Part shown: positions 1 through 21,699 of the stretch, piece by piece
Layout: each line of letters starts with the position of its first letter
Numbering within the stretch: the first letter of the stretch is position 1
Assembly: GCA_964406075.1 (NCBI GenBank)
Contig: CAYOQI010000001.1
Span: forward strand, 133,015 to 197,014
From: an uncultured Pseudomonadales bacterium
GTDB lineage: Bacteria > Patescibacteriota > Microgenomatia > UBA1400 > PJMF01
Reading direction: 5' to 3'
Length of the DNA: 64,000 nt
Notes under the pieces: generated by a model
Told to the model about the DNA's origin: nothing
Databases searched by the model: none
What the model saw: only the letters and a program-made list of their open reading frames with translations
Translations under genes and position numbers: made by a program

Positions 1-1362
1 CTGGGCGAGCTCAGTGTACCCAGTTTGCCATTCTTCAGCACTTCGTGAAGGATAATGCCCAAAATAATCATGAAAGAAAAAGACCGAGTTCAGAAAAATC
101 AAAAACATTGCAGTCACAGAAATATTTTTTAGTAATTTTGATGTTTTATTCGTAAAGATATTTTGGATGAGGAGAAAGACACCATAACTCGTGAGTATGA
201 TGAGTGGGAAAAGCGAATTCAACGAACGTAAGGCGTGTGGGGTGTTCAGTGGTACAGCTGCTGGCAAAATCCCAATCAGAATCCAAATTGATAAAAAGAA
301 CAGTACTCTTTTGTTCTGTTTAAACAAATGATACAGCGATAAGAAGAAAGGAATGACAAAAGAAAACAGCAACAATCCGGAATTACCTGTTCCGTGTCGA
401 AGATTTATGTCGCCATTTAGAAAAAGAAATGAAGGGCTGATGTGTTCTGTATAATTCTTAAGTAATTGTTTCCCTCTGAGGACCGTACGATGATACATTA
501 CTCGCGAAAGTACTCCATTTCCAGCATCCTGTCTCAAAATATTAGACGTAATAACAAATTCATCATCATTCAGTATTGATGGTGTACTCAATCGAAAATT
601 TTGACTGGCTTGATAATGCGTTGACCATAATAGTGGGAACAAAAGCACGGACCATAATCCAATTGTTAAAATCGGCAAAAACATTTTTTTAAACTCAGTG
701 AAATATTTTTCTTTCTCTTTAAAAAAGTGAAAATCTGAAATCATTAGAGCCATCATTACCACCGGCCAAACAAATCGAACACTGTAGTAGCTATACACTC
801 CGATTGCACCAAACATTGCTACAAGGGGCCACAACCATTTTCTGTCTTTTGCATACAACGCAATGAGTAGTGACACACTTACGAAAAATTGACCTAAAAA
901 ACCTTCAAAACCAACACCTGAAAAATGGAAAAACCAGGGAGTGAGTACAGCTGTGATTACAGTGCTCAACTGTATTAGTTTGGTTTGAAATTCAGAATTG
1001 AGATGAAATAACTTTTTAACGAAAAGCGTAAAAACAATTAACTGCAGAAAACCGATACAAACACTCACTAACCGAAAACTCGATACAGAAACACCGAAAA
1101 ACTGAACCGCTAAAGTTGCGAACCAAATGTATATCGGAAGCTTGTAGTCGCCATAGGAAACGAACATCGGTTGTAACCATGTCGTCCCGAACATATCTTT
1201 TCCCGTTTCAGCAACACTTTTCGCATCAACCAACATCGCCACTTCATCCCAATACAGTGAAACAGGCACCGAACCTAATTGCCAAAACTTCAGCACGAGA
1301 TAGAACAAAAATATTCCAATGAAAGTAAAGTGCCAGCAGTATTTTTTTATAAACAAAATCAT
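1..1362 (-). CDS. GT-C fold membrane glycosyltransferase (ArnT/PMT-like), paralog 1 of 4; 3' end cut by window edge
   Basis: Absent from the ORF track because it runs off the window. My minus-strand translation from ATG at 1362 stays open for 454 codons, exactly to base 1: MILFIKKYCWHFTFIGIFLFYLVLKFWQLGSVPVSLYWDEVAMLVDAKSVAETGKDMFG... It ends ...HYPSRSAEEWQTGYTELAQ. The first-loop YWDE..D....G.D motif and the EWQxGY motif match the next paralogs. The start lies 2 nt after the upstream stop. Confidence 0.75.
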   Translation of the reverse strand, partial: MILFIKKYCWHFTFIGIFLFYLVLKFWQLGSVPVSLYWDEVAMLVDAKSVAETGKDMFGTTWLQPMFVSYGDYKLPIYIWFATLAVQFFGVSVSSFRLVSVCIGFLQLIVFTLFVKKLFHLNSEFQTKLIQLSTVITAVLTPWFFHFSGVGFEGFLGQFFVSVSLLIALYAKDRKWLWPLVAMFGAIGVYSYYSVRFVWPVVMMALMISDFHFFKEKEKYFTEFKKMFLPILTIGLWSVLLFPLLWSTHYQASQNFRLSTPSILNDDEFVITSNILRQDAGNGVLSRVMYHRTVLRGKQLLKNYTEHISPSFLFLNGDINLRHGTGNSGLLLFSFVIPFFLSLYHLFKQNKRVLFFLSIWILIGILPAAVPLNTPHALRSLNSLFPLIILTSYGVFLLIQNIFTNKTSKLLKNISVTAMFLIFLNSVFFFHDYFGHYPSRSAEEWQTGYTELAQ

Positions 1363-1363
1363 A

Positions 1364-3052
1364 TTATCTACGATAAATTACCCAAACTGTTTTCCCCGCT
1401 AAATCTTTCACCTCACTCACCTTTTCTCCACCAACTTCTTCATATTTTTGCAAAGTGCTAGCGAACAAGCCTGTTTCAAAACTTGATATAACATCAACAA
1501 AACGTATATTCTGAAATGCCAAATACTCACCTTGATCCTGAGCAACTAACTGGTCTTCTGCTTGAACTAACCGAGGATCAGCTTGTGTGTAGAACCAATA
1601 ATACATTGCGGGTCGACCATATTCTCTAGTGATAAATACTGGTTCACCGACGCGTTTGGTTTGATTGAGTTGCGTAATCATTTCTTCATAGCCATACTGC
1701 CACTCTGAAGAATACTGAACTGGGTACACTCTTAAGTAATGAAAAAGAAACAGAAAAGCTTCGAGCGTTACAAATATCATAAAAACTCCGACCAGCCAAC
1801 GAAACTTAGAAGGAAGATTGTAGTAACCAGCAGCTACCCCAATTCCAATTACGATAAAAAATAATGGTGATACAGCTAAAATACGTAAGGAATGTGGCAC
1901 AACAGTTGTTAATGATGCTGGCAAAATTGCAGCTATCGTCCAACCAATTAAAAGCAAGATAATTCGTTTTTTTCTTTGCTTAAATAAAATATAGATACCA
2001 TATATCAATGGGAAAAAACTCAGATGCAATAAATGGCCAAAGTACTGAGTTGAGTGTCTTGGATTCACATCACCATGTAGAAATAAAAATCCCAAATCAA
2101 AATGGCTGACGGCATTATTCATGATTTGCTGTAAGAACAACAAATATCGATGGTGAATAATTCGCGCTACGATTCCTCCTCCATCTTCTTGAATCCTCTG
2201 ATTACTTTCTTCAATTACTGAAATGTCAGAAAAAATACTCGTTTCATTGAATCGTTGAGACAATTCATTTGAGCCTAAAGCGAACAGAAAAGGTGAAAGT
2301 AAGATCAAACCGATGAATAATAAAATAAGAATTTGTTTCAAATTCTTTTTCCACTTTATTAAGTAAGGAAAAACAAAAAGCACACCGAGCAACGGAGCTG
2401 TTAACCTACTTCCATGATAGGCATACATCGAAAGACAGAAGAATACCGTTGCAAAGACGAATACTCGAAATGAGACTGAAGTAAATTGCAGTTTAAATTC
2501 ATTCCCTGTCGAAAGCCTCCAACTTTTAAAACCTAACCATACTCCTGTTAGAACTAAAACTGTTGCTAGATTTGACTCCCAGCCACCTCGAGAAAATATA
2601 ATACCCCATGGTGATACTGCTGCAAAAAACATGACAACGCATTGAAGAAGTAATAATTGTTTCTTTTTCCAATCTGGAAATAATTCTTCTGCGAAAGCGT
2701 GCGCTAATTTTCCACTGATCCACACAATGAGCGTACCAAATATGACTGAGGGTAAACGCACCGCTAAAACATTTAACCCAAATAGTGCTATGAACGGGAC
2801 AATTGAATAGAAATACAAACTCGGTTTAAAGTCACCAAACGACTCAAAGGCAATCAGCGGAAGAAAATTTCCATGATGATCTCTACCTGTTTGTAAAATT
2901 GAATATGCGTCATATCCTAGCGCTACTTCTTCCCAGTATGGCGAGGGTGGAACAGAAGTGATCCACACAAATCGAATCAAAAACGCTACAGCAATAATTA
3001 CTAAGGGGATAATTTTAGAATTACTTAATAACGTTGACTTTAAATTACTCAT
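1364..3052 (-). CDS. GT-C fold membrane glycosyltransferase (ArnT/PMT, GT39/83-like), paralog 2
   Basis: 562 aa and polytopic. First-loop motif PYWEEVALGYDAYSILQTGRDHHG, then AVRLPSVIFG. C-terminal soluble domain carries SSEWQYGYEEM and YGRPAMYYWFY. Confidence 0.85.
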   Translation of the reverse strand: MSNLKSTLLSNSKIIPLVIIAVAFLIRFVWITSVPPSPYWEEVALGYDAYSILQTGRDHHGNFLPLIAFESFGDFKPSLYFYSIVPFIALFGLNVLAVRLPSVIFGTLIVWISGKLAHAFAEELFPDWKKKQLLLLQCVVMFFAAVSPWGIIFSRGGWESNLATVLVLTGVWLGFKSWRLSTGNEFKLQFTSVSFRVFVFATVFFCLSMYAYHGSRLTAPLLGVLFVFPYLIKWKKNLKQILILLFIGLILLSPFLFALGSNELSQRFNETSIFSDISVIEESNQRIQEDGGGIVARIIHHRYLLFLQQIMNNAVSHFDLGFLFLHGDVNPRHSTQYFGHLLHLSFFPLIYGIYILFKQRKKRIILLLIGWTIAAILPASLTTVVPHSLRILAVSPLFFIVIGIGVAAGYYNLPSKFRWLVGVFMIFVTLEAFLFLFHYLRVYPVQYSSEWQYGYEEMITQLNQTKRVGEPVFITREYGRPAMYYWFYTQADPRLVQAEDQLVAQDQGEYLAFQNIRFVDVISSFETGLFASTLQKYEEVGGEKVSEVKDLAGKTVWVIYRR

Positions 3053-4731
3053 CTGTACTCCATGATTAAATATGAAGTGAGAGAATTTGGACGAGAAATT
3101 TCTTGTACTACTTTGTATCGGGGATTATCAAATTTATCTCCAGGTACTTCTTTTGGTTGAACTACTAATAAAACAGGTTCTTGAGCCTTTTCTATATCTG
3201 ACCATACAATTCTTCCAAAATGGGTTTTCCCCAATTGTTGGACATGTTCAAATCCTTCTTCAGTCGGTGGATAATGAATAAATTCCTCACCATCTTTAAT
3301 AATTCTATCGGGCGAAAAGAATAAAAAGTATACATACGGAGAGCTACTTTCTCCTTGCATCAGCACTTTGGGAAATGCCTCAGATCTATTGTAGACAGCC
3401 TGAACTAAATCGTCACTAAACCATGGCCATCGATCAGCATTCAATGCAGGAAACAGAATGAAGTATGCGACAAATAAATGGAAAATACTAAAAATGAAAA
3501 CAAGAATTAAAAAAGGCTGAACTTTTTTCAAGTACGATCCAATGAGCCCAATTCCATATGAACTCATGATTTCTAATCCAAGAATTGCTGGAAAAAACCG
3601 AATACTGTGATTCGGTTCAATCGTCAGCAACGGTGCTACAGATGCGAGCACAATCCAACCTAATATCCATCGTTGCCAGATTCTCTTTTTCTTTAGGAAA
3701 TAGAGCAAACTGATCGCTAATGTCAAAACTGCATACCAATGCATGTTTCCCACGCCAGGAATATTATGCGATCCATGGCTTCCTCCTCGTAAAAAGAGAA
3801 AGTCAGGATTCATCATTGAAAACATACCTCGAATAAATGTTTGGGATAACAACACCGGTCGACTACTGTAAAAAGGTTGCAAAAAACTCAAACCTTTTGG
3901 AGACAGGACTCCATTTACTTCAGCTTGTTGTGATTGAAGCCGTTCTTCGGAAAAAATTGAAATACCTGAGTACTTTGTTTGATTATTTTCTATTGCCTTG
4001 TCAACAAAAAGAAAAAGTATTGGGAGTAAGAAGACGATGACTGAAAATGCGGAAATCAGCCTGTATTTTCCAATGAACGACTTCACTTCAGTTCTGAGTA
4101 TCCAAGCCGTCCAAGCTATGATGAGAGGCGTAAATAGCTGAAATGCATGATACCCAATCATCGTCAGTCCGAAACACACTCCTGATAAAATCACGAGCCA
4201 AGGTTTTTTATTTACTGTTGAGGCGAGCCAAAAAGTGACACCTGCCATACAAAAAGCCATCGCAACGTTTGCTTCATATGCTATTCGTGACAAATGAACC
4301 GACCAAGGTGAGATTGCTAAAGAAAATGCCACGAGTAGTGGTAACCAATACGGCGCATCCCATTTTTTAACAAGTAATCGAGTGAGGAAATAACCAATGA
4401 TGGTAATTAAAACACCAGCCAGAGCAGATAAGATTCTAATCGAAAAAGGATTTAGGCCGAAAACTGAAATAAATGGAATACTTAAATAGACATATAAGGG
4501 TAATTTCCAGTCACCAAAAGACTTGATGTTTACTGGCCACTTTTGTCCATATTCATCCGCTCCAGTTTGGAGCAGTGAGTAGGCTGTATACCCGAGCGAT
4601 GCTTCATCTCTATTTATTCCATCAGGTATCTCTCCAAGTTTCCAAAAACGCAAAAAGATAGCGATCACAATAATTCCTACAAAAAAAAGAGTTTGATACG
4701 AACGCAATACTTTATTCAATGAAATATTCAT
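3049..4731 (-). CDS. GT-C fold membrane glycosyltransferase (ArnT/PMT-like), paralog 3
   Basis: 560 aa and polytopic. Motifs INRDEASLGYTAYSLLQTGADEYG and IRILSALAG. 4-nt overlap with the downstream gene. Confidence 0.85.
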   Translation of the reverse strand: MNISLNKVLRSYQTLFFVGIIVIAIFLRFWKLGEIPDGINRDEASLGYTAYSLLQTGADEYGQKWPVNIKSFGDWKLPLYVYLSIPFISVFGLNPFSIRILSALAGVLITIIGYFLTRLLVKKWDAPYWLPLLVAFSLAISPWSVHLSRIAYEANVAMAFCMAGVTFWLASTVNKKPWLVILSGVCFGLTMIGYHAFQLFTPLIIAWTAWILRTEVKSFIGKYRLISAFSVIVFLLPILFLFVDKAIENNQTKYSGISIFSEERLQSQQAEVNGVLSPKGLSFLQPFYSSRPVLLSQTFIRGMFSMMNPDFLFLRGGSHGSHNIPGVGNMHWYAVLTLAISLLYFLKKKRIWQRWILGWIVLASVAPLLTIEPNHSIRFFPAILGLEIMSSYGIGLIGSYLKKVQPFLILVFIFSIFHLFVAYFILFPALNADRWPWFSDDLVQAVYNRSEAFPKVLMQGESSSPYVYFLFFSPDRIIKDGEEFIHYPPTEEGFEHVQQLGKTHFGRIVWSDIEKAQEPVLLVVQPKEVPGDKFDNPRYKVVQEISRPNSLTSYLIMEYR

Positions 4732-4738: not shown

Positions 4739-6454
4739 TTATTCAGTAGTTTTCTTTAACACAAATCTGACTGATCCATCAGGGGCGAGAATTAAGGAAT
4801 CTCCCAAAGCTGGATCAATTTGATCTGGATCAGCAACAATAATTGTATTTTTTCTCAGCAAATCACCTGAGTTTATTTTATCAGTAAACTCATACTTAAT
4901 TAATGAGCCTCCTTGATACCAAATTGGATTCGTTTGTCGAAAGAAAAGTGCATAGATGTATGGCTGGCCGTACTTGCTAGTAAAAAGAATTTTCTCAACT
5001 GAATCTTCTTGAGGGATAACATATTTAAAAGCCTCTTCATAACCATACTGAAAAGAATCAGCGGATGTCACGGCATACACTGTTCTATAGTCTTTCCAAT
5101 AACTCAAAAACACAAACACATGAATCAAAAAGAGCGTACCAACAAATGATTTAAGAATCAGCAGTTTATCGGTATCCTTAATATTCTGGCGTCCAACCCA
5201 TGAAGAAAAAACAATATTTTTAAGAATCAAACTCCAGATATGGAGAATGAAAAATATTCCAAGCGAAGAGAGAATAATAAAACCTGGATATGAGAGTAAT
5301 GCTCGATTTGAATGAGGTATCTCCAAACCAATCGCAGCCGGAACCAAGCCACTCACAATCCAACCAAGTCCAAATAAAAAGACCCGAACGACTTCTTTTA
5401 TCTGTTTGCTGTGAATTGATTTTCGACATAAATAAAGTAATCCCAAGCCCATGGCAATAATCAAAATCCACTCTGAAACAAACAGGACTCCCCATTTTCC
5501 ATCCCCGTGTCTCAATGTGGTTGTTTGACCAAGTAAAAGAAATTTAATTGATGAATGGGCAAGTAAGTTTTCAGCAATGACAAACGGCAGTAAAACTGGC
5601 GGGTATTCTGAAAACAGCGAGGTTTGATTAAAACGCTCTGCACCTTTTGCATAGATCATGTCTTGAATCAATGGAAAACTGACGAGAACAAATGAAGCAC
5701 ATAAAATGACGAAAGCGATGATTCTCTTCCTCAGTCGTACTCTACTGGTTAAAAACATCACGCCATAGAGCAAAGGCACAGCTATTTTCGCACTGTGATA
5801 GGTATACGCGGCAAATGATCCACTCATTCCAGCAAGAATCAACAATCCAATTGAAAATATCGGCTTTTCTCGAATTTCTTTTCGTTGCGAAACAAACCAG
5901 GCGTACACAGAAAATACAGTAAATGCTAAAGCCATGCCTGATTCAAATCCAGCTCGAGAAAAATGAATATGCCAAGGTGAAGTAGCAATCATTACGCCTG
6001 CCATCAAAGCAATAACTTCGGCGATTGTAAACTTCTTGATTTCAGGAATCTCAATTCTGTGAGGAATTTTTCGGAATACTTCATATACCACGAGCATGAC
6101 AACCATGACTGTAAAAATTCCAGCCAACGCAAAAGGTAATCTCACCACCCACACATGCATCCCTAATACAGCTGTGAAAACTCCATTTATGTATATCGCT
6201 AGAGGTGCTTTAAAATCTCCAAACGATTTAAAAGATACAGGTAATCGAATCAACCACTCATCCCTGCGAGTTTCCCAAATCGCTGACCCATTGTACCCAA
6301 TCGCAGCTTCATCCCATGAGAATCCTGCTGGGATTTCACCTAATTTATATAATCGGAATAAAGCAGCGAAAACGATAACGAGAACGAACAAAAGGTAAAA
6401 GGTTTGTTTTTGCCAAAAAATTGTACGCCAGTGAGAGAAGTAATCTCGCATCAA
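4739..6454 (-). CDS. GT-C fold membrane glycosyltransferase (ArnT/PMT-like), paralog 4
   Basis: 571 aa and polytopic. Motifs FSWDEAAIGYNGSAIWETRRDEW and VVRLPFALAG. C-terminal ADSFQYGYEEAF and YGQPYIYALFF match paralog 2. Confidence 0.85.
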   Translation of the reverse strand: MMRDYFSHWRTIFWQKQTFYLLFVLVIVFAALFRLYKLGEIPAGFSWDEAAIGYNGSAIWETRRDEWLIRLPVSFKSFGDFKAPLAIYINGVFTAVLGMHVWVVRLPFALAGIFTVMVVMLVVYEVFRKIPHRIEIPEIKKFTIAEVIALMAGVMIATSPWHIHFSRAGFESGMALAFTVFSVYAWFVSQRKEIREKPIFSIGLLILAGMSGSFAAYTYHSAKIAVPLLYGVMFLTSRVRLRKRIIAFVILCASFVLVSFPLIQDMIYAKGAERFNQTSLFSEYPPVLLPFVIAENLLAHSSIKFLLLGQTTTLRHGDGKWGVLFVSEWILIIAMGLGLLYLCRKSIHSKQIKEVVRVFLFGLGWIVSGLVPAAIGLEIPHSNRALLSYPGFIILSSLGIFFILHIWSLILKNIVFSSWVGRQNIKDTDKLLILKSFVGTLFLIHVFVFLSYWKDYRTVYAVTSADSFQYGYEEAFKYVIPQEDSVEKILFTSKYGQPYIYALFFRQTNPIWYQGGSLIKYEFTDKINSGDLLRKNTIIVADPDQIDPALGDSLILAPDGSVRFVLKKTTE

Positions 6455-6487: not shown

Positions 6488-8578
6488 CTATTGCCACCGA
6501 CTCCGCAAGTAACTAAACATTCCTTTAATAAAAAGACCATTCGATCGATAATTCGTCAGTGTTAAATGATACGGCAACCAAAAAACAAATAAGGCTTTTT
6601 GAAGTACTGAGGAGTTTTTTTTGACAAAGACAAAACTATTTTTTATTGACATTACTTTCATGGCTTGGTCACCAAAAGCATTTTTGTGCGTTGTTTCATG
6701 ATGATGAAACACCTTCGCGTCTGCATCGTATAAAATGGCCCATCCTTTTTTTCTAGCCCGAGCACTTAAATCAATATCTTCCCAATACGCCGGGTAATAC
6801 TCTTTATCAAATCCATTTAACTCTTTCCATTTATCTCGATGAATAAGTGCTGATCCACCACTGAGCCAGGCTGTTTGTCCAGTACTCATTCGTTTTGCTT
6901 TTGAATGAATGAATAATCCCCGTTCAAACCAAAGCTCATTTTTCCCGGCTACTATTTTTCCATCATGCATTTCAGCTGGTGAAACACCAAAAACTTGGTC
7001 TGGGGATGGATATAGCGAACGCTTTTTCCCAGCTCTATTTGGATGAGCCGTAAAATATGACAGCAAATAATCTAATACATCTTTTTGTGGAGAAACATCA
7101 TTATTCAATAGAAAAATTAAATCATGATGTGCATGCAAAACACCTTTATTCGATGACATCCCAAATCGCAGATTCTTTTTATTGATAATCAACTTTACGA
7201 TCAGTTTTTTCCTCGCCTTTATTTTTTCACCGATATACATATCATCATCAAATGCCGCTCGATCTGTTACTTCTTTTAATCCATACTCACTTTTTAGCCA
7301 CGAAAACGTTTCATCGGAACTTGCATCATCAACAATCACAATCTCATCTTGATCTCGTAAACATGCCTCAACTGCTGGTAAATGTTTTTTCAGTAACTCG
7401 AGTCCGTTGTAGGTGGGGATGACTGCTGACACTCCACTAGGCTGGATAGAAATGGCATGTGGTTCAGGTAGATGAAAAAGTGTAAAAACTTCAGACACAA
7501 AATGGACTTGATCAAAATGCTCCGCTCTTTCTCGAGCGTGAATTGAAAGTTCAACGGTATCAATTTCTTCGGTAATAATAGCCAGTGTTTTTTCAGTCAA
7601 CGCCTCCATGGTATTCCAAAGAAAACCATTCAACCCATGTTCCACAATTTCTTTTTGTCCGCCTTTATTGATAACCACTGGAATACAACCCGCCGCCATC
7701 GCTTCCACAGTGGAGATGCCAAAGTGTTCTACTTTTTCAGGTTCAATGTACTCATCGACTTCATACCCAGTTGCATGCCAAAAAATTTTTGACTTTCGTA
7801 AATATTTATGTACTTCATCGTATGTGGCATCATGTAAAAACTCGATGGCATAGCCTTGAGCTTGTTCTTTTAACACCGAAACATATTCACTATCCTCATC
7901 TTTTCCAATTAAAACCAGTTTCCACCCTTTCATTTCATTGGGATTACTTTTCACTAAATTTTTGAATGCTTGAATGAGGACGTCCTGTCTTTTGGTGTGA
8001 AGTTGCTTAAAAAATCTACCAATACTGAGAATAACTTTTTCTTTCTTTCCCGGTTGAATTTCATGTAGATCTACACAAGGATATAACACTGTTTCTACTC
8101 TCTTTTGCCATTTTCGCTCTATAACTTGTTTCGTGAAAATTGAATTAGCGTTGATGCTCCAACCCGAGAGTTTCAAACGATTGAATATGCTCGACTGGGT
8201 ATTCGTAAATGGAATTTGAACATGCAAAATATTTTGATGAGCCAGAGAAAAGAAAAGACTGCCATCAGTAACAGCGAACAGTGTGTGAAATTGCTTCGTC
8301 CAAAGAACTTTTTTGAAAAAAGAAGCGTCAGTACCTAAAGGAGTATGTTGAAAATCAACCCAGGAAAGATCGAGATTAAAGTGTTCTGAATATGATTCTC
8401 GAATCGTATTGATGGCTTCTTCATCAAGCTCCTCTTTTCCGGAAATCGCTATAACCACCCGATAAAAGCGAGACAGGATGGATGCAATCGTGAGAATATG
8501 ACGTTCACCACCGCCAAAATGTTTTGGAATATAGGGTGAATAAAAACAGATACTAATACTTTGCGAAGAGTTTTTCAT
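6488..8578 (-). CDS. Bifunctional glycosyltransferase (N-terminal GT4/group-1 domain fused to C-terminal GT2 domain)
   Basis: 696 aa. GT4 E-x7-E block EHFGISTVEAMAAGCIPVV. GT2 blocks VSAVIPTYNG...VIVDDASSDET, LLNNDV and YWEDIDLSARARKKGW. Confidence 0.85.
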   Translation of the reverse strand: MKNSSQSISICFYSPYIPKHFGGGERHILTIASILSRFYRVVIAISGKEELDEEAINTIRESYSEHFNLDLSWVDFQHTPLGTDASFFKKVLWTKQFHTLFAVTDGSLFFSLAHQNILHVQIPFTNTQSSIFNRLKLSGWSINANSIFTKQVIERKWQKRVETVLYPCVDLHEIQPGKKEKVILSIGRFFKQLHTKRQDVLIQAFKNLVKSNPNEMKGWKLVLIGKDEDSEYVSVLKEQAQGYAIEFLHDATYDEVHKYLRKSKIFWHATGYEVDEYIEPEKVEHFGISTVEAMAAGCIPVVINKGGQKEIVEHGLNGFLWNTMEALTEKTLAIITEEIDTVELSIHARERAEHFDQVHFVSEVFTLFHLPEPHAISIQPSGVSAVIPTYNGLELLKKHLPAVEACLRDQDEIVIVDDASSDETFSWLKSEYGLKEVTDRAAFDDDMYIGEKIKARKKLIVKLIINKKNLRFGMSSNKGVLHAHHDLIFLLNNDVSPQKDVLDYLLSYFTAHPNRAGKKRSLYPSPDQVFGVSPAEMHDGKIVAGKNELWFERGLFIHSKAKRMSTGQTAWLSGGSALIHRDKWKELNGFDKEYYPAYWEDIDLSARARKKGWAILYDADAKVFHHHETTHKNAFGDQAMKVMSIKNSFVFVKKNSSVLQKALFVFWLPYHLTLTNYRSNGLFIKGMFSYLRSRWQ

Positions 8579-13714: not shown

Positions 13715-15453
13715 GAGGGTTTTTTTAATTTTTCTTTTCTTAATTCAACGATCATATACAGTGTCACAATAGCAGACAGGAGTGCAATCAAATCGGACCA
13801 CATCCGAACTGGTGTTGATCTCAATTGTAATCCGACAAGATGATCTCCTGGCGGAACTTTTACTTCAATTGTTCCCACTGCCATCCTCTCGTGTGGCACA
13901 TCTTTTCCATCGAGTGAGACTGTCCATCCCGGATAATCTGCTACGTTAAATCGTAACACTCGTTCACCTGAAAAAATCATTCTGACTAATATTTCATGTG
14001 TTCGATCGACCAATACTTCACGTTGTCGACGTTCCTCTTCTAAACCTACAACTTCAACACGTAACTCAGCAGGTTGTATATTCTCGGCTAAATATATCGG
14101 CATGTAATCAGGTAATGTTTCACTCATCTCGTTCTGAATTCTGGTTGCATCCGAGTAATACAGAGCTTCCGAATTATCCAGAAAAAATTCTGGTTGAAAA
14201 TAGGTCACACCTTTGAAAAATGTATATCCTATGATCAAAACTGCCAGAGAATATCGATACATGTCTTTTTTAATTATCCAAAAACTTATGCCCGAAGCAC
14301 ATGCAATAAAGAATGATGACAACGCTAAAAATCTCCACGGGAATTGAGCAACTTGAAGTGTGGGAATATTCCAAATTAACTGAGATTTTTGAGTGCTTAA
14401 TAACAATGAAGCCAGTAAAGAAAAAGCTAAAAACCCAAAAAGGACAAGTTTATTTAAAACAACTTTTTTCTTCGATTGAATGAAATAAATAAAAATGACA
14501 ACAAGTGAGAGTGCGAACAAAACCAACTGAGGGTAGCCTAAAAAGAAACTAATATCGTCGTTTGGTCCCCACTGTGAACCACCATACTTCCAGTTTTCTT
14601 GAAAAAACTGTCGAATATATAAAAAATGTTGAGAGTAATGAAAGTAACCACTCAGTATTCTTGAACTCACTTGAGTGTAATCTTTTTCCAAAAGTGCCGG
14701 AAAAATATAAAAAGCGGAAGTACCAATACTTAAAACAAAAGCCCGCACAATATCTTTTAGTACTCTAACTTTTTTGCCCTTCGTTCTCACAAAAGCAAGG
14801 CCAGCATACGCAAGCACAACCGGAGTGAAAAACAACGTCATTAAATTGTGACTCAAAAACAAACCGACATTTGCTAAAAATAGTGTTATCCATGGTTTCT
14901 TTTGGTTTTGTGCTGTAATTTTGTCTACACCATAGAGTATCCACGGGAAAAAGCTCATAGCCCACACTTCAGACAATGCACCACGTACATAAAGATTTAC
15001 TGCTCGATATGGTGCGAGAGTAAAAAGGACGGCAGCAACTAATCCAGCTAATCGGCCATAGTGACGAGAAACATATTTGTAAGTTCCGATGAAACCAACA
15101 ACTGATGGAATCAACCATAGAAACTTGGAAGCAAAAAGCAAATTGTTTGTGAGCCAATAAAAAAATGCTCCGACATAAAAAGGTAACGGAGCATAGAACT
15201 CGAATAACGGCATGCCGTAGCCGTATCCTAAATTTTGACTCCAACGAACCGGAAAATGACCATCTCGTAACGCGTCCAACATCTCAGAAATACGCACTCC
15301 ATGAACAAAATCATGGGTTCTGAATATTTCAGGATTGAGTAAGGCCCGCGAGGAAATAAAAATCGTGATACAAAAAATAATAAGCACACCAAATTTTTGT
15401 ACCCGTGGGTTTTTTAATAATATCAACCAGTGATCAATTTGATTTTTTTTCAT
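13711..15453 (-). CDS. YfhO/PTPS-related-like polytopic membrane protein (probable GT-C glycosyltransferase)
   Basis: 580 aa. N-terminal HDFVHGVRISEM...FPVRWSQNLGYGYGMPLFEFYAPLPFY. C-terminal beta-domain ADYPGWTVSLDGKDVP...VKVPPGDHLVGLQL followed by a final TM, as in YfhO-type proteins. Confidence 0.6.
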   Translation of the reverse strand: MKKNQIDHWLILLKNPRVQKFGVLIIFCITIFISSRALLNPEIFRTHDFVHGVRISEMLDALRDGHFPVRWSQNLGYGYGMPLFEFYAPLPFYVGAFFYWLTNNLLFASKFLWLIPSVVGFIGTYKYVSRHYGRLAGLVAAVLFTLAPYRAVNLYVRGALSEVWAMSFFPWILYGVDKITAQNQKKPWITLFLANVGLFLSHNLMTLFFTPVVLAYAGLAFVRTKGKKVRVLKDIVRAFVLSIGTSAFYIFPALLEKDYTQVSSRILSGYFHYSQHFLYIRQFFQENWKYGGSQWGPNDDISFFLGYPQLVLFALSLVVIFIYFIQSKKKVVLNKLVLFGFLAFSLLASLLLSTQKSQLIWNIPTLQVAQFPWRFLALSSFFIACASGISFWIIKKDMYRYSLAVLIIGYTFFKGVTYFQPEFFLDNSEALYYSDATRIQNEMSETLPDYMPIYLAENIQPAELRVEVVGLEEERRQREVLVDRTHEILVRMIFSGERVLRFNVADYPGWTVSLDGKDVPHERMAVGTIEVKVPPGDHLVGLQLRSTPVRMWSDLIALLSAIVTLYMIVELRKEKLKKPS

Positions 15454-17024
15454 TACTGTTTTTCAGGAATCTCTGTTTCCTCTGTTGGAACCGCGTGCTG
15501 ATATTCATAGACATCTAAACTCGAAGATTGGCCCGGACGTGGAAACTTATACACCAATTTAATTCTTGGATCATTGAGCACCAGCATCCGGTGTGTATTG
15601 ACCAATAAGTAAGCTGTTTCCGCTTGCTCGGCTTTTTGTAACCATTCCTCAGGCAAAACTACAATCGGCTGACCAACTCCAAATATCTCAATATTTTCTA
15701 CATTTTTATTATGAAAGTACATCAGTAACCCATCAGGAAGTGTCCCAAAATATCCTTCAGTACCGACAACCACTCTTCCTTGCTTGGCTTTTTCTTCAAT
15801 AATACTCACCATTTCGTAATTTCCTTGACCTGCTGACCATTCTTCCAGATACTGTTCCCGATCAATCGGGACGAACGGCAAAGAATTCACATCAAACAAC
15901 ATGGAATAAAAAAATCTCAAACAGACTAAAGCCGGGACGAATAAAAACAGCCCAATGCCAAGTCGAATTTTTTTCAATTCTAAAAAGAGTTCTTCATAAA
16001 AAAGACTGATTGATACAGTGCTGAAAATCACCATAGGCAAAACATAACGAGGAGCAAAAACTCGTGCAAAAACTAAAAATGGCAGAATAAATACGAGCAT
16101 TGCTAAAAAAAGCACCCAATGGTTTTTTTTATGTTTAGAGAAAAATAAAGAAAGAAACCACAGAATGGTTAATGTGAATGAAAAGTACGTACCATGCCAA
16201 AATATCACCCGTCGAACATTATTGATGCTCGATCTCCATTCACCACCAATTAATTCTTGAGTAGTAAACGTAAAGTCTTGACCACGACTAAAAAGTTGTC
16301 CAAAAGCCGGATGGAGTTTTAAAGATGCAAAAAGTCCTAGTCCAATCAATGCGACAAAACCCGACATTATCAACATTTTCCATGCCGTTTTGGTAAATGG
16401 GTTCAATTTCTCTGCATATAACTGTGAAAATAATGGAAAAGCCAGAAGGAAGAAAATTGCTGGCAATTTAGTAAGTAAAGCCAATCCGTAGGATACACCA
16501 GTAAAAATAATCCAAAAAATTTGAGACTTGCTTCCCTTTTCAGTTTTTTTCAACAATGCTAGTTCTGTAAAACCAAGCGTCACCAACGATAAGAAAAATG
16601 TCAGTAAACCATCGATCAACGCCATCCGATGATGAAAAACCCAAAACGGCATCAGAGTAACTAAGAACATACTCAGTAACTGGGCAATCTCTTTTCCACC
16701 GAGATTTTTCACAATTTTTTTGATCACAAATAACTGAATCAAGCCGACTATTACAGATAGAAACCTCCCTGCCATTAATGGGTCATCTGAAAGTTGGAGA
16801 AATGGAATCATTAACCACATATGAAGTGGTGTTTTACCGTCATTCAGGGGAAACAAAAGATACTGTCGCCAGTCATCAATAATGAGCTGTGACCAACGGA
16901 TATAAATGGCTTCATCAGCAAAAACAGGTAAAAGAGTTAAAGAAAAAATGTGAGTGGCGAGATACAAAACAACAATCCCAGCAATGCCAAATGAAAATGC
17001 TCTGCGATCAATTTTCATACTCAT
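15453..17024 (-). CDS. GT-C fold membrane glycosyltransferase (ArnT-like)
   Basis: 523 aa and polytopic. First-loop motif VFADEAIYIRWSQLI. Soluble C-terminal domain. Confidence 0.7.
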   Translation of the reverse strand: MSMKIDRRAFSFGIAGIVVLYLATHIFSLTLLPVFADEAIYIRWSQLIIDDWRQYLLFPLNDGKTPLHMWLMIPFLQLSDDPLMAGRFLSVIVGLIQLFVIKKIVKNLGGKEIAQLLSMFLVTLMPFWVFHHRMALIDGLLTFFLSLVTLGFTELALLKKTEKGSKSQIFWIIFTGVSYGLALLTKLPAIFFLLAFPLFSQLYAEKLNPFTKTAWKMLIMSGFVALIGLGLFASLKLHPAFGQLFSRGQDFTFTTQELIGGEWRSSINNVRRVIFWHGTYFSFTLTILWFLSLFFSKHKKNHWVLFLAMLVFILPFLVFARVFAPRYVLPMVIFSTVSISLFYEELFLELKKIRLGIGLFLFVPALVCLRFFYSMLFDVNSLPFVPIDREQYLEEWSAGQGNYEMVSIIEEKAKQGRVVVGTEGYFGTLPDGLLMYFHNKNVENIEIFGVGQPIVVLPEEWLQKAEQAETAYLLVNTHRMLVLNDPRIKLVYKFPRPGQSSSLDVYEYQHAVPTEETEIPEKQ

Positions 17025-18253
17025 CTTCCTATCTTAGTCGGAGAATGAGTTCTTCGCCAGCCCAACCACATCAGCACACCTAAAAGTCCAATCACCCAAG
17101 TAATCATTCTTTGCTGAAAATGAATGTCAGAGGTGTACTCAAAAGCTCCATTCCACATCCAAGGGATGTACCGTAACATCGAGGAGAATGACAAAGAAAT
17201 TAATAAAGCTTGTAACCATTTCCACTTAATGAATGGAAGAAACGTTAACGACCAAATCAAGTACCAAGGGTGAAACCACTGAGAGCGAGAAGTCAGAAGC
17301 GGTAACAACAATAAGATTGATGAATACTCCATTACATTTTTAGTGACAACATCAATGAATTTTTGAGCGTTTCCTTGCAGATGCTTTTTAAAATCATATT
17401 CTTGTTGAGAAAAAACCAGCACCATCCAAACTGGGAGTAAAACCACCGTTACATACTTCATTGAAATTGAGATCAACAGAAAAGTAAAAGATATGAACAT
17501 TAAAGGAATACTTTGTTTGTATTTTTTATTCATTAATACATACAAACCGCCGAGTGCGAAGGTCATCATCCACGCGTCATTATGCCCTACCATTATTGTT
17601 TCAATAATGACCAACGGATTGAGCGCAAACATCAACCAATTTTTTATCCTTGTTTTTTTATCTTGGGTAAATATTTCCAGAAACTTCCACTGAATATATA
17701 CCAGTGCCGTTAACCCCAGCAAACTCCATGCTTTGAATAAAAGCCATGTTGACAAAAATTTTCCAAAACCAAACACGTACGGAATTAAAGAAAGTGCCGT
17801 CCAGCCATAAAAATATGGCGCTGGTGTATGAACATTGTGCATAAACCGTATCCACGGATCAGAGACAAAATCGAGTGCGGTTTGAATATGCGGATTTGCA
17901 CTATACTGAATAACCATTTTGGCATTAAATATGTAATTGAAAATATCGTGAGATAAAGCGTTATAGGCAAATACAGAAATTCCAAAAATGAGACAAACTA
18001 AAATCCACGGTTGTGAAGCTTCTTTATCTTTTCGAGATTGATGAAGTATCAAAAAATACGTGGAAAAAAGTAAAAGAATCAGGGCTGAATACGCAGTTGT
18101 TACGGTAGTCACTGGTATTGACCACATCACATTTTGAAATTGAAGATACGGTGACCACTGAAACAAGACCAAATTTCGATCAGTCAGTGAGTATGTCCAA
18201 ATGCTAAAAACGAAAATCAGAAAAGTGTAGATAAATAGTGAAGTATTTTTCAT
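17021..18253 (-). CDS. Polytopic membrane protein (possible GT-C or Wzy-like polymerase)
   Basis: 410 aa with 10 or more hydrophobic segments. 4-nt overlaps on both sides place it in the same operon. No diagnostic motif recognised. Confidence 0.4.
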   Translation of the reverse strand: MKNTSLFIYTFLIFVFSIWTYSLTDRNLVLFQWSPYLQFQNVMWSIPVTTVTTAYSALILLLFSTYFLILHQSRKDKEASQPWILVCLIFGISVFAYNALSHDIFNYIFNAKMVIQYSANPHIQTALDFVSDPWIRFMHNVHTPAPYFYGWTALSLIPYVFGFGKFLSTWLLFKAWSLLGLTALVYIQWKFLEIFTQDKKTRIKNWLMFALNPLVIIETIMVGHNDAWMMTFALGGLYVLMNKKYKQSIPLMFISFTFLLISISMKYVTVVLLPVWMVLVFSQQEYDFKKHLQGNAQKFIDVVTKNVMEYSSILLLLPLLTSRSQWFHPWYLIWSLTFLPFIKWKWLQALLISLSFSSMLRYIPWMWNGAFEYTSDIHFQQRMITWVIGLLGVLMWLGWRRTHSPTKIGR

Positions 18254-18271: not shown

Positions 18272-19033
18272 TTAAGCATACTGTCCGGTTAACCAAGCAA
18301 TTCTAATTCGAATAATATCTCTGAACATTCGTAACGAATCTTTTATCGGTGACACACGATCAGACTCAAAGTGTGCCCATTGCACTGGCATTTCAGTCAC
18401 TTTTAATCCTTTTTTTCGAGCCAAAAATAGCAACTCTACATCAAATGCGCCAGTATATGCATCACTCCTTTGTTGGTCTTGACCATAAATGACTAAAGAA
18501 GGGAAAAGCATTTCTGTCGCTCGTTGGGAAAAAAGTTTAAATCCGCATTGAGTATCTAAAATCCCTGGCACTGCTAGTAGTTGCACCATTAGATTAAACC
18601 CTCTTCCCATTAAGTGGCGATGAAACGGTTCTTTGGCCCGTAATGCACCTCGAACTTCTCGGGAACCAATCACAATGTCAGATTCATCAGATCGAAGGCA
18701 ATCAAGTGCCCGAACCACTTCAGACAGTGGAGTTGATTGATCAAAGTCCGTGAATAAACGATACTTGCCCGTAGCCGCAAGCATTCCTTTAGTCACTGTT
18801 GGACCTTTACCAGCATGTGCATTTTTTAAAATTGCTATGTTTTCTTTTCCTCGTGCAAATTTTTCTAATAATTCAATCGTCCCGTCAGAAGAACCATCAT
18901 CGCTCAAAACTAATTCCCAGGAGTAGGGTTGTTTTTGCAAGTAAGCATACACATCATCTAATACATTTCGATGAAAATTTTTTGCTTCATTATACGAAGG
19001 CAAAATGATAGATAAGAAGGGTTGCGATGGCAT
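18272..19033 (-). CDS. GT2 polyprenol-phosphate glycosyltransferase-like (ALG5/DPM1-like)
   Basis: LSIILPSYNEAKNF, LVLSDDGSSDGT and FTDFDQSTP (DxD). Confidence 0.75.
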   Translation of the reverse strand: MPSQPFLSIILPSYNEAKNFHRNVLDDVYAYLQKQPYSWELVLSDDGSSDGTIELLEKFARGKENIAILKNAHAGKGPTVTKGMLAATGKYRLFTDFDQSTPLSEVVRALDCLRSDESDIVIGSREVRGALRAKEPFHRHLMGRGFNLMVQLLAVPGILDTQCGFKLFSQRATEMLFPSLVIYGQDQQRSDAYTGAFDVELLFLARKKGLKVTEMPVQWAHFESDRVSPIKDSLRMFRDIIRIRIAWLTGQYA

Positions 19034-19054
19034 GAGTAAAATTGTACCTTTCTT

Positions 19055-20566
19055 TCATCTTCTGAGGAAGAGAATGTCAGGTCCACCTGGGATTTTGATA
19101 ATCTCGGTCGGTGTTTTGGTCGGGAAAACAACTATTTCGTAAATGGCTGAGTTGGCAATGTCAGCACCTGTTTTTTCTTCATCAATGACAACTAAAGTAT
19201 CGATATTTCCCCACTCTTCAATTGGGCTAGGTGGTTTGTTTCCAATCGCAGTTAAAAAGTATCGATAATTCATTCCTTCTATATCTCCATGCGGTGCTAA
19301 AAGCACCACGTTATATTTTTCTCCAGGTTGAATAAAACCTTGAATCACCTCACTCGTTGCCTGCATTTCGTTGATCGTCCAAGATAAATCTCGATACACA
19401 TATTTTTGAATATTTACCATAATAAATAACACCGTACCCACGGCGACACACATTTTCCCCACCTTATTTTGAGCAATATACGAAAGCACTAAACCAAGCA
19501 GCAAAGCAGTAACAGGGAATAAGTAGCCAATATAGTGATTAAAAATGGTACTTCGATAAAAAGCAGCACCGAGAATACCAATTCCCATCCAAACAACTAA
19601 AACGAGGATTCCTCTTCGAAACGGTCTGAAATAATTTGATCTCAAACTCAAAATAATTCCAACAATCACCGCGACAACTAAAAGCGTGTTCAACCAACGC
19701 ACCTCACCTAAGGTAATTTCAAAAAAAGCTTGCAGTGAACGTCCATGTGTTTCCATCAGAATATCACTCAGTTTCCGGACTGAGCCCAAATGTTCATCTT
19801 CTCCAAAAAGAAGATCTTGGAAAGCTCGCCAATTCAGATAATCATGTCGTAAATCGAAGAGAATCAGTGGAATCAATGAGGAAATAAAAACTGCCACCGC
19901 AGCAAAAGTCGCTCCAAAAAACTTCTTCGTTGATTTTTTGACAACGGGTTTAAATAAAGTGAATAACCAAATGAGACCAGCAGCTCCACCAGTTAACAAT
20001 GTTAAATAATGGAGTTGAATAAGTAAGCTGAAACACAAACCAACAATGATCCAGTACATCGGAGATTTTATCCATGCCCGATGAATCGCCCAAATCATAA
20101 TTAGTGAGATAAGTGGAGCTGGATTGGGATTCCAACTAAATCGTGTTAATTCGATAAACGTCCAAGTAAAGGCATATAAAATACTAGCAATCAATGCTCC
20201 TCTTTTTCCAATTAATTCTTTGCCAAGTAAATAAATTAAAGGAACAGTTAAACTTCCAAGTAAAGCTACCGCATAGACTGGTCCCATCGGACTCGGGTAT
20301 GTCAGTGCGTAAAAAGGCAACATGAAGTAGTAATAGCCTGGCCCGAGGTACATGTTACCTACACTGGTGACCGGACCAATAAAGACTAGATTTTTCTCAA
20401 CTAACATTTTGTAGGTAATTAAGGCATCTCTACCCTGATCACCGAGAAATTGAAGCGTTCCATCCAAGTTATAGAATCGTAAAAAAGTGGCGATGAGGGT
20501 TACAACACCAAGTATCCATAGATGAGTAGAAATTCTATGGAATTTAGAGGTAAAAATTGATTTCAT
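19055..20566 (-). CDS. GT-C fold membrane glycosyltransferase (ArnT-like)
   Basis: 503 aa and polytopic. First-loop motif FLGDQGRDALITYKM. Confidence 0.7.
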   Translation of the reverse strand: MKSIFTSKFHRISTHLWILGVVTLIATFLRFYNLDGTLQFLGDQGRDALITYKMLVEKNLVFIGPVTSVGNMYLGPGYYYFMLPFYALTYPSPMGPVYAVALLGSLTVPLIYLLGKELIGKRGALIASILYAFTWTFIELTRFSWNPNPAPLISLIMIWAIHRAWIKSPMYWIIVGLCFSLLIQLHYLTLLTGGAAGLIWLFTLFKPVVKKSTKKFFGATFAAVAVFISSLIPLILFDLRHDYLNWRAFQDLLFGEDEHLGSVRKLSDILMETHGRSLQAFFEITLGEVRWLNTLLVVAVIVGIILSLRSNYFRPFRRGILVLVVWMGIGILGAAFYRSTIFNHYIGYLFPVTALLLGLVLSYIAQNKVGKMCVAVGTVLFIMVNIQKYVYRDLSWTINEMQATSEVIQGFIQPGEKYNVVLLAPHGDIEGMNYRYFLTAIGNKPPSPIEEWGNIDTLVVIDEEKTGADIANSAIYEIVVFPTKTPTEIIKIPGGPDILFLRR

Positions 20567-21699
20567 TCTGCTGTGATTCGAAGTCTTTTTTTGACTTCAT
20601 TTCTAAACGCTGTTATTTCTACAACTTCATATACCCATTGATCATACTTGGGAACAGGAGGATGTGTAATAACGCCCTCCGAAATTGGAGTCTTAATAGG
20701 AATTGTAGAGGGAGTAAACTCCAATGTATACAATTTGTTTCCCATCAATTTGGCCAGACTAATTCCATGGGTCATCGGGAAAAAAGAATTGAGATCTTGG
20801 TTGTAAATCGAGAAAAGTTTTCCGAGTGTCTGAGGCTGTTTCACTAATTCAGGATCTTTGATTTTTTGTATTAAGGCTGAAATAATTTCTTGCTGTCGTT
20901 GATTACGCGCATCATCCGTTCCAACTTCTAAATCCTGACTTTTACGACTTCGCATATACTTCAAAGCTCGTTCTCCCGTCATCTTTTCGATTCCTTTCTT
21001 GAACTCGACCGTTTCATAGAGTTTTGCGGGATCAGTTTCCGTTCGGATATCTACATCAGTCCGAGGAAATCTTTCATCTGTAAATTCTTTTTGAATAAAA
21101 ATATCAAGACCGCCAACTGCGTCAATAACTTCAGCCACCGTATCTAAGGATAAGACAATGGAATAATGAATCGGAACATCCATTAATTCTGAAAGCACTT
21201 GTGTAGTAAAAAGTTCCGGGGAGTCAGGTGTCCTCTCATTTCCATACCAATACAAGGAATTCACTTTGGTTTGATACTCAGGAATCCAAAGATCTCGTGG
21301 CAAACTCAAGGCCGAAAGTTCGCCACTTTGAGTATTTAAAGACAACACCATTAATGTGTCGGTGAAAATAGGATCACCCGTTCGGTTCGCCAATTCATCT
21401 GTTCCAAGCAAAAGAATATTTACTCTTCCATCATCCATTTTTGCTTGAGTATTCCAACCTTCACGTGCCAGTGATATCAGTTCCTGATTGGAAACATGTG
21501 CTTCAGCGGTAAAAGCTTGAAGATAATTTCCAACTTTTATCCCGAAGTATCCAACAACTGTAGCGATGGATAAGATGAAAACCAGTCCAATAATCAGTAA
21601 CCAGAAAATGAGCGGACGTGCTGGATGAGCAGGAGTAATAAGGACAGGTGTTTTATCAATACCCTTACCTGTCTCTTTCTTTTTTGGCATAAAAAACAT
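20563..21699 (-). CDS. LytR-CpsA-Psr (LCP) family glycopolymer-to-cell-wall ligase
   Basis: N-terminal TM, then RVNILLLGTDE...TDTLMVLSLN...LSLPRDLW. The true start may be the second ATG at 21690 (MPKKKE...). Confidence 0.85.
   Translation of the reverse strand: MFFMPKKKETGKGIDKTPVLITPAHPARPLIFWLLIIGLVFILSIATVVGYFGIKVGNYLQAFTAEAHVSNQELISLAREGWNTQAKMDDGRVNILLLGTDELANRTGDPIFTDTLMVLSLNTQSGELSALSLPRDLWIPEYQTKVNSLYWYGNERTPDSPELFTTQVLSELMDVPIHYSIVLSLDTVAEVIDAVGGLDIFIQKEFTDERFPRTDVDIRTETDPAKLYETVEFKKGIEKMTGERALKYMRSRKSQDLEVGTDDARNQRQQEIISALIQKIKDPELVKQPQTLGKLFSIYNQDLNSFFPMTHGISLAKLMGNKLYTLEFTPSTIPIKTPISEGVITHPPVPKYDQWVYEVVEITAFRNEVKKRLRITAE

Follow-up and report, generated by a model that had tools for sequence, protein, structure and literature searches.

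What kind of glycan is made by a bacterium that encodes eight candidate glycosyltransferases of the GT-C fold in one gene run, and to what is this glycan finally attached? The question is raised by a 64-kb stretch of DNA, hereafter the window (contig CAYOQI010000001.1, positions 133,015 to 197,014), from a Pacebacteria-like member of the Patescibacteria (NCBI phylum Minisyncoccota), in which, according to the open reading frame (ORF) listing, an unbroken run of minus-strand genes extends from position 21699 down to the window edge. The run contains at least 15 glycosyltransferase (GT) domains, over half of them GT-C, together with a Wzx-type flippase and an enzyme of the LytR-CpsA-Psr (LCP) family. 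Judged from its genes, it appears to be an unusually GT-C-dense glycan-assembly locus, conserved in the sampled lineages of the Microgenomates type. The reading preferred here, to which we give about an even chance, is that the locus makes a peptidoglycan-anchored secondary cell-wall heteropolysaccharide via a hybrid lipid-linked route.

Patescibacteria account for a large share of bacterial diversity, are host-attached and have tiny genomes, and their surface glycans are almost uncharted. No description of such a tandem GT-C array in bacteria of the candidate phyla radiation (CPR) was found in the literature. The published CPR mentions are counts of glycosyltransferase or Dol-P-Man-synthase genes only, with one Microgenomates genome paper counting 29 glycosyltransferase genes, and a 2024 perspective on the biology of Patescibacteria leaves glycans unmentioned. 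As targets the locus offers two candidate lipid-sugar synthases, a set of ordered GT-C paralogs and the LCP enzyme.

The GT-C enzymes

The genes were numbered g1–g16 along the direction of transcription (Table 1), and the last four, g13–g16, are tandem full-length paralogs that clearly constitute one family (24–30% identity, blastp E-values of 1e-27 to 1e-44). In Pfam searches they match PMT_2 under the cut-off or not at all, g15 having no Pfam match of its own. Homologues of g14 are plentiful in Pacebacteria-like Patescibacteria, many of them with a PMT (PF02366) or PMT_2 match, and a 33-sequence profile of the family reaches ArnT (5ezm) with an E-value of 0.0066. The AlphaFold2 (AF2) model of g14, built on the 33-sequence alignment, has a predicted local distance difference test (pLDDT) score of 90.7 and a predicted template modelling score of 0.91. 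In a Foldseek comparison of this model with the PDB all 30 matches with E≤1e-3 are GT-C proteins, among them AglB (3e-8), ArnT (7e-8), STT3, PglB, Pmt4, ALG9, ALG12 and Pmt1/2. Among the 33 homologues of g14, E43, D74 and K76 are invariant and D42 is at least 90% conserved. The first extracytoplasmic helix (residues 41–56), which comes directly behind the first transmembrane (TM) helix, TM1, has D42 and E43 at its start, and in each of the four paralogs the acidic loop motif is WDE, RDE or WEE; in g13 both the WDE behind TM1 and a GDxK are conserved. In the profile alignment D74-x-K76 falls on the region of ArnT near residue 88. The four proteins are thus predicted to share the GT-C fold, and that fold, the alignment with ArnT and the neighbouring DPMS-like GT2 genes suggest that they use polyprenyl-phosphate-sugar donors. 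An oligosaccharyltransferase (OST) reading of the tandem enzymes was rejected, as no WWDxG-like motif was seen by eye in the g13–g16 translations.

The survey of relatives covers 58 loci, each representing a species, from Pace-, Woese-, Levy-, Beckwith- and Curtissbacteria. When 103 proteins of the array were clustered by average linkage, no clean paralog groups emerged, and paralogs in the relatives were assigned by best-hit labels and identity comparisons. Orthologues of g16 occur at 36–45% identity in 58 Patescibacteria loci; in the closest relative found, L001, the g16 orthologue is 563 aa long and 52% identical, and g14 is 53% identical. Because orthologues of different species (36–53% identity) are closer to one another than the paralogs of one genome (24–30%), the duplications appear to be old and the tandem copies are probably non-redundant. 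The positional order g13–g15–g16–fifth type recurs in 14 loci.

Four further GT-C candidates are encoded nearer the start of the run. At least about eight hydrophobic segments are present in g2, with an acidic GDQGRD right behind TM1. The PMT domain of g5 is accompanied by the loop-1 Asp-Glu, in the form of an ADE motif behind TM1, whereas g6, the PTPS_related member of the set, also has a C-terminal YfhO match of 36.9 bits and a weak match to the N-terminal GT-C domain of AftD (2.8e-4). Single-sequence PDB searches with g2, g5 and g6 were without matches. The fourth candidate, g4, is an all-helical polytopic protein for which local Pfam, NCBIfam and PDB sequence searches returned no match; a precomputed PF26314 label, MptA_B_family, is attached to it and to more than 100 homologues. 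Its AF2 model (pLDDT 89.6) has no significant Foldseek match, and all matches with a probability of at least 0.2 are GT-C proteins (ALG3 at 0.93, STT3, ArnT and EmbB); with the label, these weak matches make g4 a probable GT-C. An Asp or Glu lies shortly behind TM1 in all eight candidates. The seven or eight GT-C enzymes announced by the sequence-only reading of this DNA, which had asked for structure prediction as a check on their fold, have therefore been recovered: most of the polytopic proteins are GT-Cs, seven of them firm by Pfam or structure and g4 probable.

The labels of g4 and g6 also recall the enzymes of lipomannan and lipoarabinomannan (LM/LAM), and the GT-Cs might accordingly extend a membrane-anchored glycolipid of this type instead of a wall-linked polymer. 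Both g6 and its downstream homologue match the AftD GT-C domain weakly, the relatives add a PIG-V/GT87-like GT-C, and genes of the phosphatidylinositol-mannoside type were inferred in CPR by a Saccharibacteria genome paper (PMC6031116). However, the window contains no recognisable enzyme of the PimA/PimB type or for the formation of a lipid anchor, and the LM/LAM route makes no use of LCP and Wzx proteins, which are conserved here, so that a lipoglycan is regarded as very improbable.

Table 1. Genes of the minus-strand run, listed in the direction of transcription (positions in the window).
Gene	Coordinates	Strand	Assignment	Basis
g1	20563..21699	-	LCP (LytR-CpsA-Psr) glycopolymer transferase	PF03816 E=7e-29
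g2	19055..20566	-	GT-C, PMT_2/ArnT-like	PF13231 41.7 bits vs cut-off 26.1
g3	18272..19033	-	soluble GT2	PF00535 E=3e-19
g4	17021..18253	-	polytopic all-helical protein, MptA_B family, probable GT-C	precomputed PF26314 label
g5	15453..17024	-	GT-C, PMT (GT39-like)	PF02366 52.9 bits vs cut-off 22.7; PF13231 44.3 bits
g6	13711..15453	-	GT-C, PTPS_related/YfhO-like	PF10131 48.3 bits vs cut-off 26.4
g7	12218..13714	-	Wzx/MOP lipid-linked glycan flippase	Polysacc_synt_3 E=3e-50
g8	11309..12214	-	soluble GT2 Leloir GT, g11 paralog	PF00535 E=1.5e-20
	11098..11304	-	doubtful hydrophilic ORF, 68 aa	between g8 and g9; 4-nt and 3-nt spacers
g9	10414..11094	-	soluble GT2 (DPM1/AglJ/PpgS-like)	PF00535 E=5.5e-38
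g10	9511..10404	-	soluble GT2 Leloir GT, rhamnosyltransferase-like	PF00535 and PF13641
g11	8651..9511	-	soluble GT2 Leloir GT	PF00535 E=2e-21
g12	6488..8578	-	cytoplasmic bifunctional GT4 (residues 176-349) and GT2 (residues 383-641)	PF00534 E=1e-26; PF00535 E=2e-12
g13	4739..6454	-	tandem GT-C paralog 1	blastp to g14/g15/g16 9e-39 to 3e-29
g14	3049..4731	-	tandem GT-C paralog 2, the modelled one	AF2 and Foldseek
g15	1364..3052	-	tandem GT-C paralog 3	blastp to g16 4e-44, to g13/g14 ~1e-35 to 1e-38
g16	1..1362	-	tandem GT-C paralog 4, C-terminus cut by window edge	translation; orthologues

A proposed route from lipid-linked precursors to the cell wall

The donors of the GT-Cs may come from g3 and g9, two soluble proteins with 26% identity over their full length; both are promising, if unproven, candidate synthases of polyprenyl-phosphate sugars. 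The closest solved structure to g3 is the Pyrococcus DPMS 5mlz (1e-12), followed by ArnC, and residues 1–203 of g9 match the same DPMS (1e-14) and ArnC. Alignments of g9 to the NCBIfam models AglJ (E=2e-39) and PpgS are full-length. In the relatives, g3 always lies between the PMT_2 and MptA_B genes.

Alongside these candidates, five Leloir GT domains are encoded in the run, in g8, g10, g11 and g12, the last of which joins a GT4 and a GT2 domain in one protein. The paralogs g8 and g11 are 30% identical over 253 aa; the closest solved structures to g11 are GmaR and SunS, for the N-terminal GT-A part only, with DPMS and ArnC not among the matches. The rhamnosyltransferase model TIGR01556 matches g10 under its cut-off (E=2e-19), and there is a weak match to GlfT1. 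Because of these five cytoplasmic domains, the claim of the sequence-only reading that the glycan is built mostly outside the cytoplasm is not established.

The Wzx-type protein g7 matches the NCBIfam models of a WzxC-type MOP flippase (3e-31), an O-glycosylation flippase (2e-30) and TuaB (6e-21), and its nearest curated families are flippases of oligosaccharides linked to polyprenyl diphosphate (polyprenyl-PP). Among the scanned ORFs of the window none matches the GtrA-family flippases (PF04138), which makes g7 the only flippase candidate there. Its identification as a Wzx-like protein stands, but the substrate first proposed for it, polyprenol-phosphate monosaccharides, does not agree with these affinities. 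That substrate belongs to a scheme in which the locus is an expanded three-component system: the products of g3 and g9 would be flipped by g7 and the glycan built almost wholly outside by the GT-Cs. The scheme has a parallel in Streptococcus pyogenes, where GacK, of the Wzx type, is proposed to flip C55-P-GlcNAc, working with the soluble GT-A GacI and the GT-C GacL (PMC8035078); g3 and g9 resemble GacI in being soluble, and no other flippase is at hand in the window. On the other side, the five Leloir domains imply a cytoplasmic lipid-linked glycan that has to be exported, g7 is closest to flippases of lipid-PP-oligosaccharides, and a GT2::GtrA fusion adjoins the g2–g5 core in relatives, which suggests that lipid-phosphate sugars are normally flipped by a GtrA-type protein in this lineage. 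Given the Leloir domains and the affinities of g7, the three-component wiring is less parsimonious and seems quite unlikely.

The end point of the route depends on g1, whose PF03816 match spans profile positions 2–149 of 150 and whose TIGR00350 score in NCBIfam, 84 bits, exceeds the cut-off of 62. A single N-terminal TM helix (residues 31–49) forms a membrane anchor beside the full LytR_cpsA_psr catalytic domain. The LCP gene is the first gene of the locus in three relatives too. The canonical role of LCP enzymes is the ligation of glycopolymers to peptidoglycan, and from its family and the conserved synteny g1 would be expected to transfer a polyprenyl-PP-linked glycan to peptidoglycan. Within 21688–21755 the ATG annotated as the start of g1 shares bases with a TATAAT-like hexamer, and a second in-frame ATG follows 9 nt downstream; the second ATG may be the true start, and the transcript possibly has a very short leader or none.

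The acceptor could also be a protein. In such an O-glycosylation machine the PMT-like GT-Cs would move sugars from polyprenyl-phosphate donors to secreted, pilus or S-layer proteins, comparable to actinobacterial Ppm1/Pmt or streptococcal PgfS/PgfM, and the LCP or another enzyme would attach the larger glycan to protein. This would suit the score of g5 above the Pfam threshold of PMT (protein O-mannosyltransferase), the loop-1 DE motif in g5 and g13–g16, the weak PgfS matches of g3 and g9, the match of g7 to the O-glycosylation flippase model, the kinship of g11 with GmaR and SunS, which are protein or peptide glycosyltransferases, and the oligosaccharyltransferases at the top of the Foldseek matches of g14. 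These matches, however, are far under the curated equivalog cut-offs, the WWDxG-type OST motif was not seen in g13–g16, the locus holds no candidate acceptor protein, and its conserved first gene encodes an LCP enzyme, canonically a ligase of glycopolymers to peptidoglycan. Protein O-glycosylation is therefore considered improbable.

The route to a wall-anchored heteropolysaccharide might run as follows. The glycan would be started on polyprenyl phosphate by a priming enzyme, a phosphoglycosyltransferase whose gene would lie beyond the window, and the Leloir domains of g8, g10, g11 and g12 would build it into a cytoplasmic polyprenyl-PP-linked oligo- or polysaccharide, which g7, going by its family, would flip. 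In parallel g3 and g9, to judge from their homologies, would each charge polyprenyl phosphate with a different sugar. Drawing on these two lipid-phosphate-sugar pools, as their fold suggests, the eight GT-Cs and those encoded past the window edge would attach residues one by one at the outer face, every enzyme being responsible for one defined residue or linkage, in an order and to an acceptor that are conjectural. Once complete, the glycan would be passed by g1 from the lipid-PP carrier onto peptidoglycan.

Extent, conservation and modularity of the locus

The 17 closely spaced minus-strand genes of the sequence-only reading are confirmed as 16 solid ORFs and one doubtful ORF of 68 aa in 1–21699. 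With the 68-aa ORF counted as a gene, the spacers from g1 to g16 are -4, 21, 18, -4, -1, -4, 3, 4, 3, 9, -1, 72, 33, 7, -4 and 1 nt, a range of -4 to +72 nt. The doubtful ORF has no family match and no homologue across 66 related loci; an ORF of 50 aa at the equivalent position in L001 is unrelated to it in sequence. If it is not a gene, g8 and g9 are separated by 214 nt (11095–11308), the sole sizeable gap of the run, and this stretch could hold an internal promoter. The locus scan placed no terminator-like site in any intergenic gap, all those found falling inside genes, which makes co-transcription of the run plausible. Promoter-like sites number 32 against 56.7 expected, the scan being uninformative in this respect, and Rfam revealed no RNA element in the locus. 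The G+C content of the run, 0.36–0.39, is that of the rest of the window, and a recent horizontal import was rejected because of this uniformity. On the plus strand the AT skew is above zero across the polytopic GT-C and Wzx genes (1–6000 and 12000–20000) and below zero across the soluble GT genes (6000–12000), a pattern probably due to the T-rich codons of the minus-strand genes for membrane proteins.

The true right end of the locus is a divergent spacer of 56 bp, followed by a plus-strand HIT gene and, to the right of it, by uvrD-like, uvrC, uvrA, uvrB, a gene for a class II aminoacyl-tRNA synthetase, recJ, cca and secDF. Amid the uvrD-like/uvrC/uvrA/uvrB genes are two stand-alone GIY-YIG ORFs of 96 and 101 aa (22361–22651 and 34981–35286) with the common motif YIGVT.DLE.R..EHK, and an acidic ORF of 516 aa without a Pfam family lies between uvrA and uvrB (30928–32478). 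Farther on, the region 49182–56846, containing a 1142-aa ORF without a Pfam match, a tRNA (52829–52901) and then five plus-strand ORFs without a family match, may be an integrated element beside a tRNA; the G+C content at 54–56 kb is slightly higher, 0.417. At the opposite end, g16 runs off the window and coordinate 1 is thus not the true end of the locus, so that the extent of 21.7 kb first given to it is too small. Since the closest relative has further genes after the array, the locus almost certainly continues past position 1, and the window probably holds the first ~22 kb of more than 30 kb.

In L001 the gene order is PTPS-like/Wzx/GT2/small ORF/GT2/GT2/GT2/GT4-GT2, then five tandem GT-Cs; the array is followed by GT2, GT4 and AftD-like GT-C genes, one each, and by the gene of a polytopic protein of 481 aa whose loop reads RDE. 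Three further genomes, with a g4 homologue 45–46% identical, keep the left-hand order and the flanks: uvrA/uvrC/uvrD-like/LCP/PMT_2/GT2/MptA_B/PMT/PTPS-like/Wzx/four GT2/GT4-GT2. The synteny comparison that the sequence-only reading had called for therefore found the gene order, including the LCP gene, kept in relatives at 45–53% identity. Across the survey, at least three consecutive genes of the tandem family are present in 41 of the 58 loci and at least four in 22, a g12-like gene stands directly upstream of the array in 29, and in 17 the series g16/fifth GT-C/GT2/g6-like GT-C is present downstream. Farther downstream, relatives encode a PIG-V/GT87-like GT-C, an epimerase/dehydratase of the short-chain dehydrogenase/reductase (SDR) type, another g9-like (DPM1-like) GT2 and sometimes a second Wzx. 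With this extension, seen at L001:15080-21667 and at 13400–21300 in both L006 and L009, the GT-Cs number at least 11 altogether. In one locus a peptide deformylase gene (L065:11236-11973) interrupts the conserved core, separating the MptA_B-family gene from the GT-C gene that follows it. Records of metagenome-assembled genomes with the locus are often titled 'uncultured Pseudomonadales' or 'Gammaproteobacteria' (L006, L011, L014, L015, L019 and others), titles that look like taxonomic mislabels.

Not every relative has the whole series. In L004 and L005 (L004:1-7753 and L005:3196-7671) the core is preceded by Ugd (UDP-glucose dehydrogenase), two genes similar to SDR epimerases/decarboxylases and a GT2::GtrA fusion, which in L005 take the place of LCP. 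L004 has genes for dTDP-rhamnose as well. This context hints at a pentose or uronic-acid lipid-phosphate-sugar donor and at rhamnose in the polymer. The run could then be a 'glycan island' in which several independent modules, each a GT2 with one or more GT-Cs, serve different polymers side by side. Such an arrangement would account for the solitary core of L005 in its Ugd/SDR/GT2::GtrA context and for the many genomes in which the tandem-array block has no core genes within 10 kb, and a promoter in the gap at 11095–11308 would suit it. It is at odds with the full order kept in relatives at 45–53% identity, with the start/stop overlaps that cross the module boundaries (g5/g6 and g6/g7, with g7 and g8 only 3 nt apart), and with the presence of two lipid-phosphate-sugar synthase candidates for at least eight GT-Cs. 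On these grounds an island of independent modules is judged unlikely.

The proposal of a single peptidoglycan-anchored heteropolysaccharide has to be weighed against several observations that speak against it. In some actinobacteria LCP enzymes also glycosylate proteins. Pfam and NCBIfam searches detected no priming phosphoglycosyltransferase, Wzy or chain-length regulator in the window, and with neither a priming enzyme nor a GtrA-family protein there, the initiation of the glycan and the flipping of the lipid-phosphate sugars are left unexplained. Neither g3 nor g9 has a TM helix, the membrane anchor of GtrB/CsbB thus being absent, and the scores of both are far under the curated NCBIfam cut-offs of every named synthase; their earlier designation as polyprenol-phosphate-sugar synthases accordingly holds as to the best solved relatives, DPMS and ArnC, but not as to these cut-offs. 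The GT-C status of g4 is based on the precomputed Pfam label and weak fold matches, and profile–profile comparisons of g4 with two other GT-C families were not significant. Finally, L005 has the g2–g5 core (PMT_2/GT2/MptA_B/PMT) alone, with unrelated genes after it, which shows the locus to be modular, and the modules may serve different acceptors. The family calls themselves (LCP, Wzx, GT2 and GT-C) all stand, with Pfam or NCBIfam scores above the cut-offs for LCP, Wzx, the GT2/GT4 proteins, g2, g5 and g6.

Comparison with known systems

The sequence-only reading likened the locus to three-component glycosylation systems of the CsbB/GtcA/YfhO or GtrABC type, a class to which GacI/J/K/L and GtsA/B/C also belong (PMC8035078). 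There are shared features: in both cases a DPMS/ArnC-type GT2 adjoins GT-Cs, one GT-C of the window is YfhO/PTPS_related-like, and the presence of a soluble GT-A with a Wzx-type flippase recalls GacI and GacK. Those systems, however, pair one GT-A with one GT-C for a single side-chain sugar, whereas here there are two synthase candidates and at least eight GT-Cs (at least 11 in relatives), five Leloir domains and an LCP enzyme in the run, and no GtrA-family flippase in the window. Lacking both GtrA and the pairing of one GT-C with each synthase, the locus is not a member of the GtrABC or CsbB-GtcA-YfhO type in the strict sense; since the g2–g5 core stands alone in other genomes and the locus is larger and modular, the analogy is too narrow. 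The flipping of a polyprenyl-phosphate monosaccharide by a Wzx protein is proposed only for GacK (PMC8035078).

Protein O-mannosylation (Ppm1 and Pmt, GT39) and the Pgf system of S. mutans share with the locus the PMT family, the acidic motif of loop 1 and a GT2 similar to polyprenyl-phosphate-sugar synthases. They have one or two GT-Cs, LCP and Wzx are not part of them, and no acceptor protein was identified here.

Pathways for a secondary cell-wall polysaccharide (SCWP) or capsule that depend on Wzx/Wzy and end with LCP, such as that of the Bacillus anthracis SCWP, resemble the locus in the Wzx protein, the cytoplasmic GTs, the extracytoplasmic decoration by GT-Cs and the LCP enzyme. A combination of Wzx, multi-component glycosylation and LCP has been proposed for the SCWP of B. 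anthracis, with GacI/J/K/L as a second precedent (PMC8035078). Unlike these pathways, the window yielded no Wzy, chain-length regulator or priming transferase, and the locus is thus not a canonical Wzx/Wzy locus.

More of the proposed logic is shared with the mycobacterial and corynebacterial synthesis of arabinogalactan and LM/LAM (GlfT1/2, WbbL, Emb/Aft/Mpt, the Ppm1/DPA donors and Lcp1; general knowledge and the LCP review PMC7831098). There, too, a lipid-PP primer made in the cytoplasm and then exported, many GT-Cs, few polyprenyl-phosphate-sugar donors and LCP ligation are combined, embCAB are tandem GT-C genes, and the MptA_B label of g4 and the weak matches of g6 to AftD and of g10 to a rhamnosyltransferase and GlfT1 point the same way. 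The differences are that the locus belongs to Patescibacteria, that its GT-Cs are of the PMT/ArnT type with C-terminal domains of ~110 aa and not of the Emb type with large carbohydrate-binding domains, that export would be by Wzx and not by an ABC transporter, and that no match reaches an equivalog cut-off.

The lipid-linked oligosaccharide (LLO) pathway of the endoplasmic reticulum (ER), with ALG1/2/11, RFT1, DPM1/ALG5, ALG3/9/12/6/8/10 and OST, is likewise composed of cytoplasmic GT-A/GT-B enzymes, a flippase of the MOP-superfamily type, non-redundant GT-C paralogs, two donors made by DPM1-like enzymes and a transfer en bloc; ALG9, ALG12 and ALG3 are among the fold matches of g14 and g4. 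It is an analogy of logic only, without orthology at the sequence level, and the final step would be LCP to peptidoglycan here but is OST to Asn there. By analogy, the locus appears closer to arabinogalactan/LAM or ER-LLO assembly than to GtrABC.

In its boldest form, which we put forward tentatively and hold to be rather doubtful, the comparison suggests a lineage-specific, Wzy-independent extracytoplasmic 'assembly line' in Patescibacteria of the Microgenomates group, in which a flipped lipid-linked primer would be extended by 8–12 ordered, non-redundant GT-C paralogs from two or three polyprenyl-phosphate-sugar donors and fixed to peptidoglycan by LCP as the major surface heteroglycan. The locus would in that event take up several percent of a genome of ~1 Mb, and a role in host attachment would be plausible. 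It points to a major surface polymer that may be assembled largely outside the membrane, and it invites a comparison of independently evolved multi-GT-C pathways in eukaryotes, actinobacteria and CPR, among which the assembly line, if it exists, would be a bacterial counterpart of the lumenal ALG pathway of the ER, independent of the actinobacterial arabinogalactan system.

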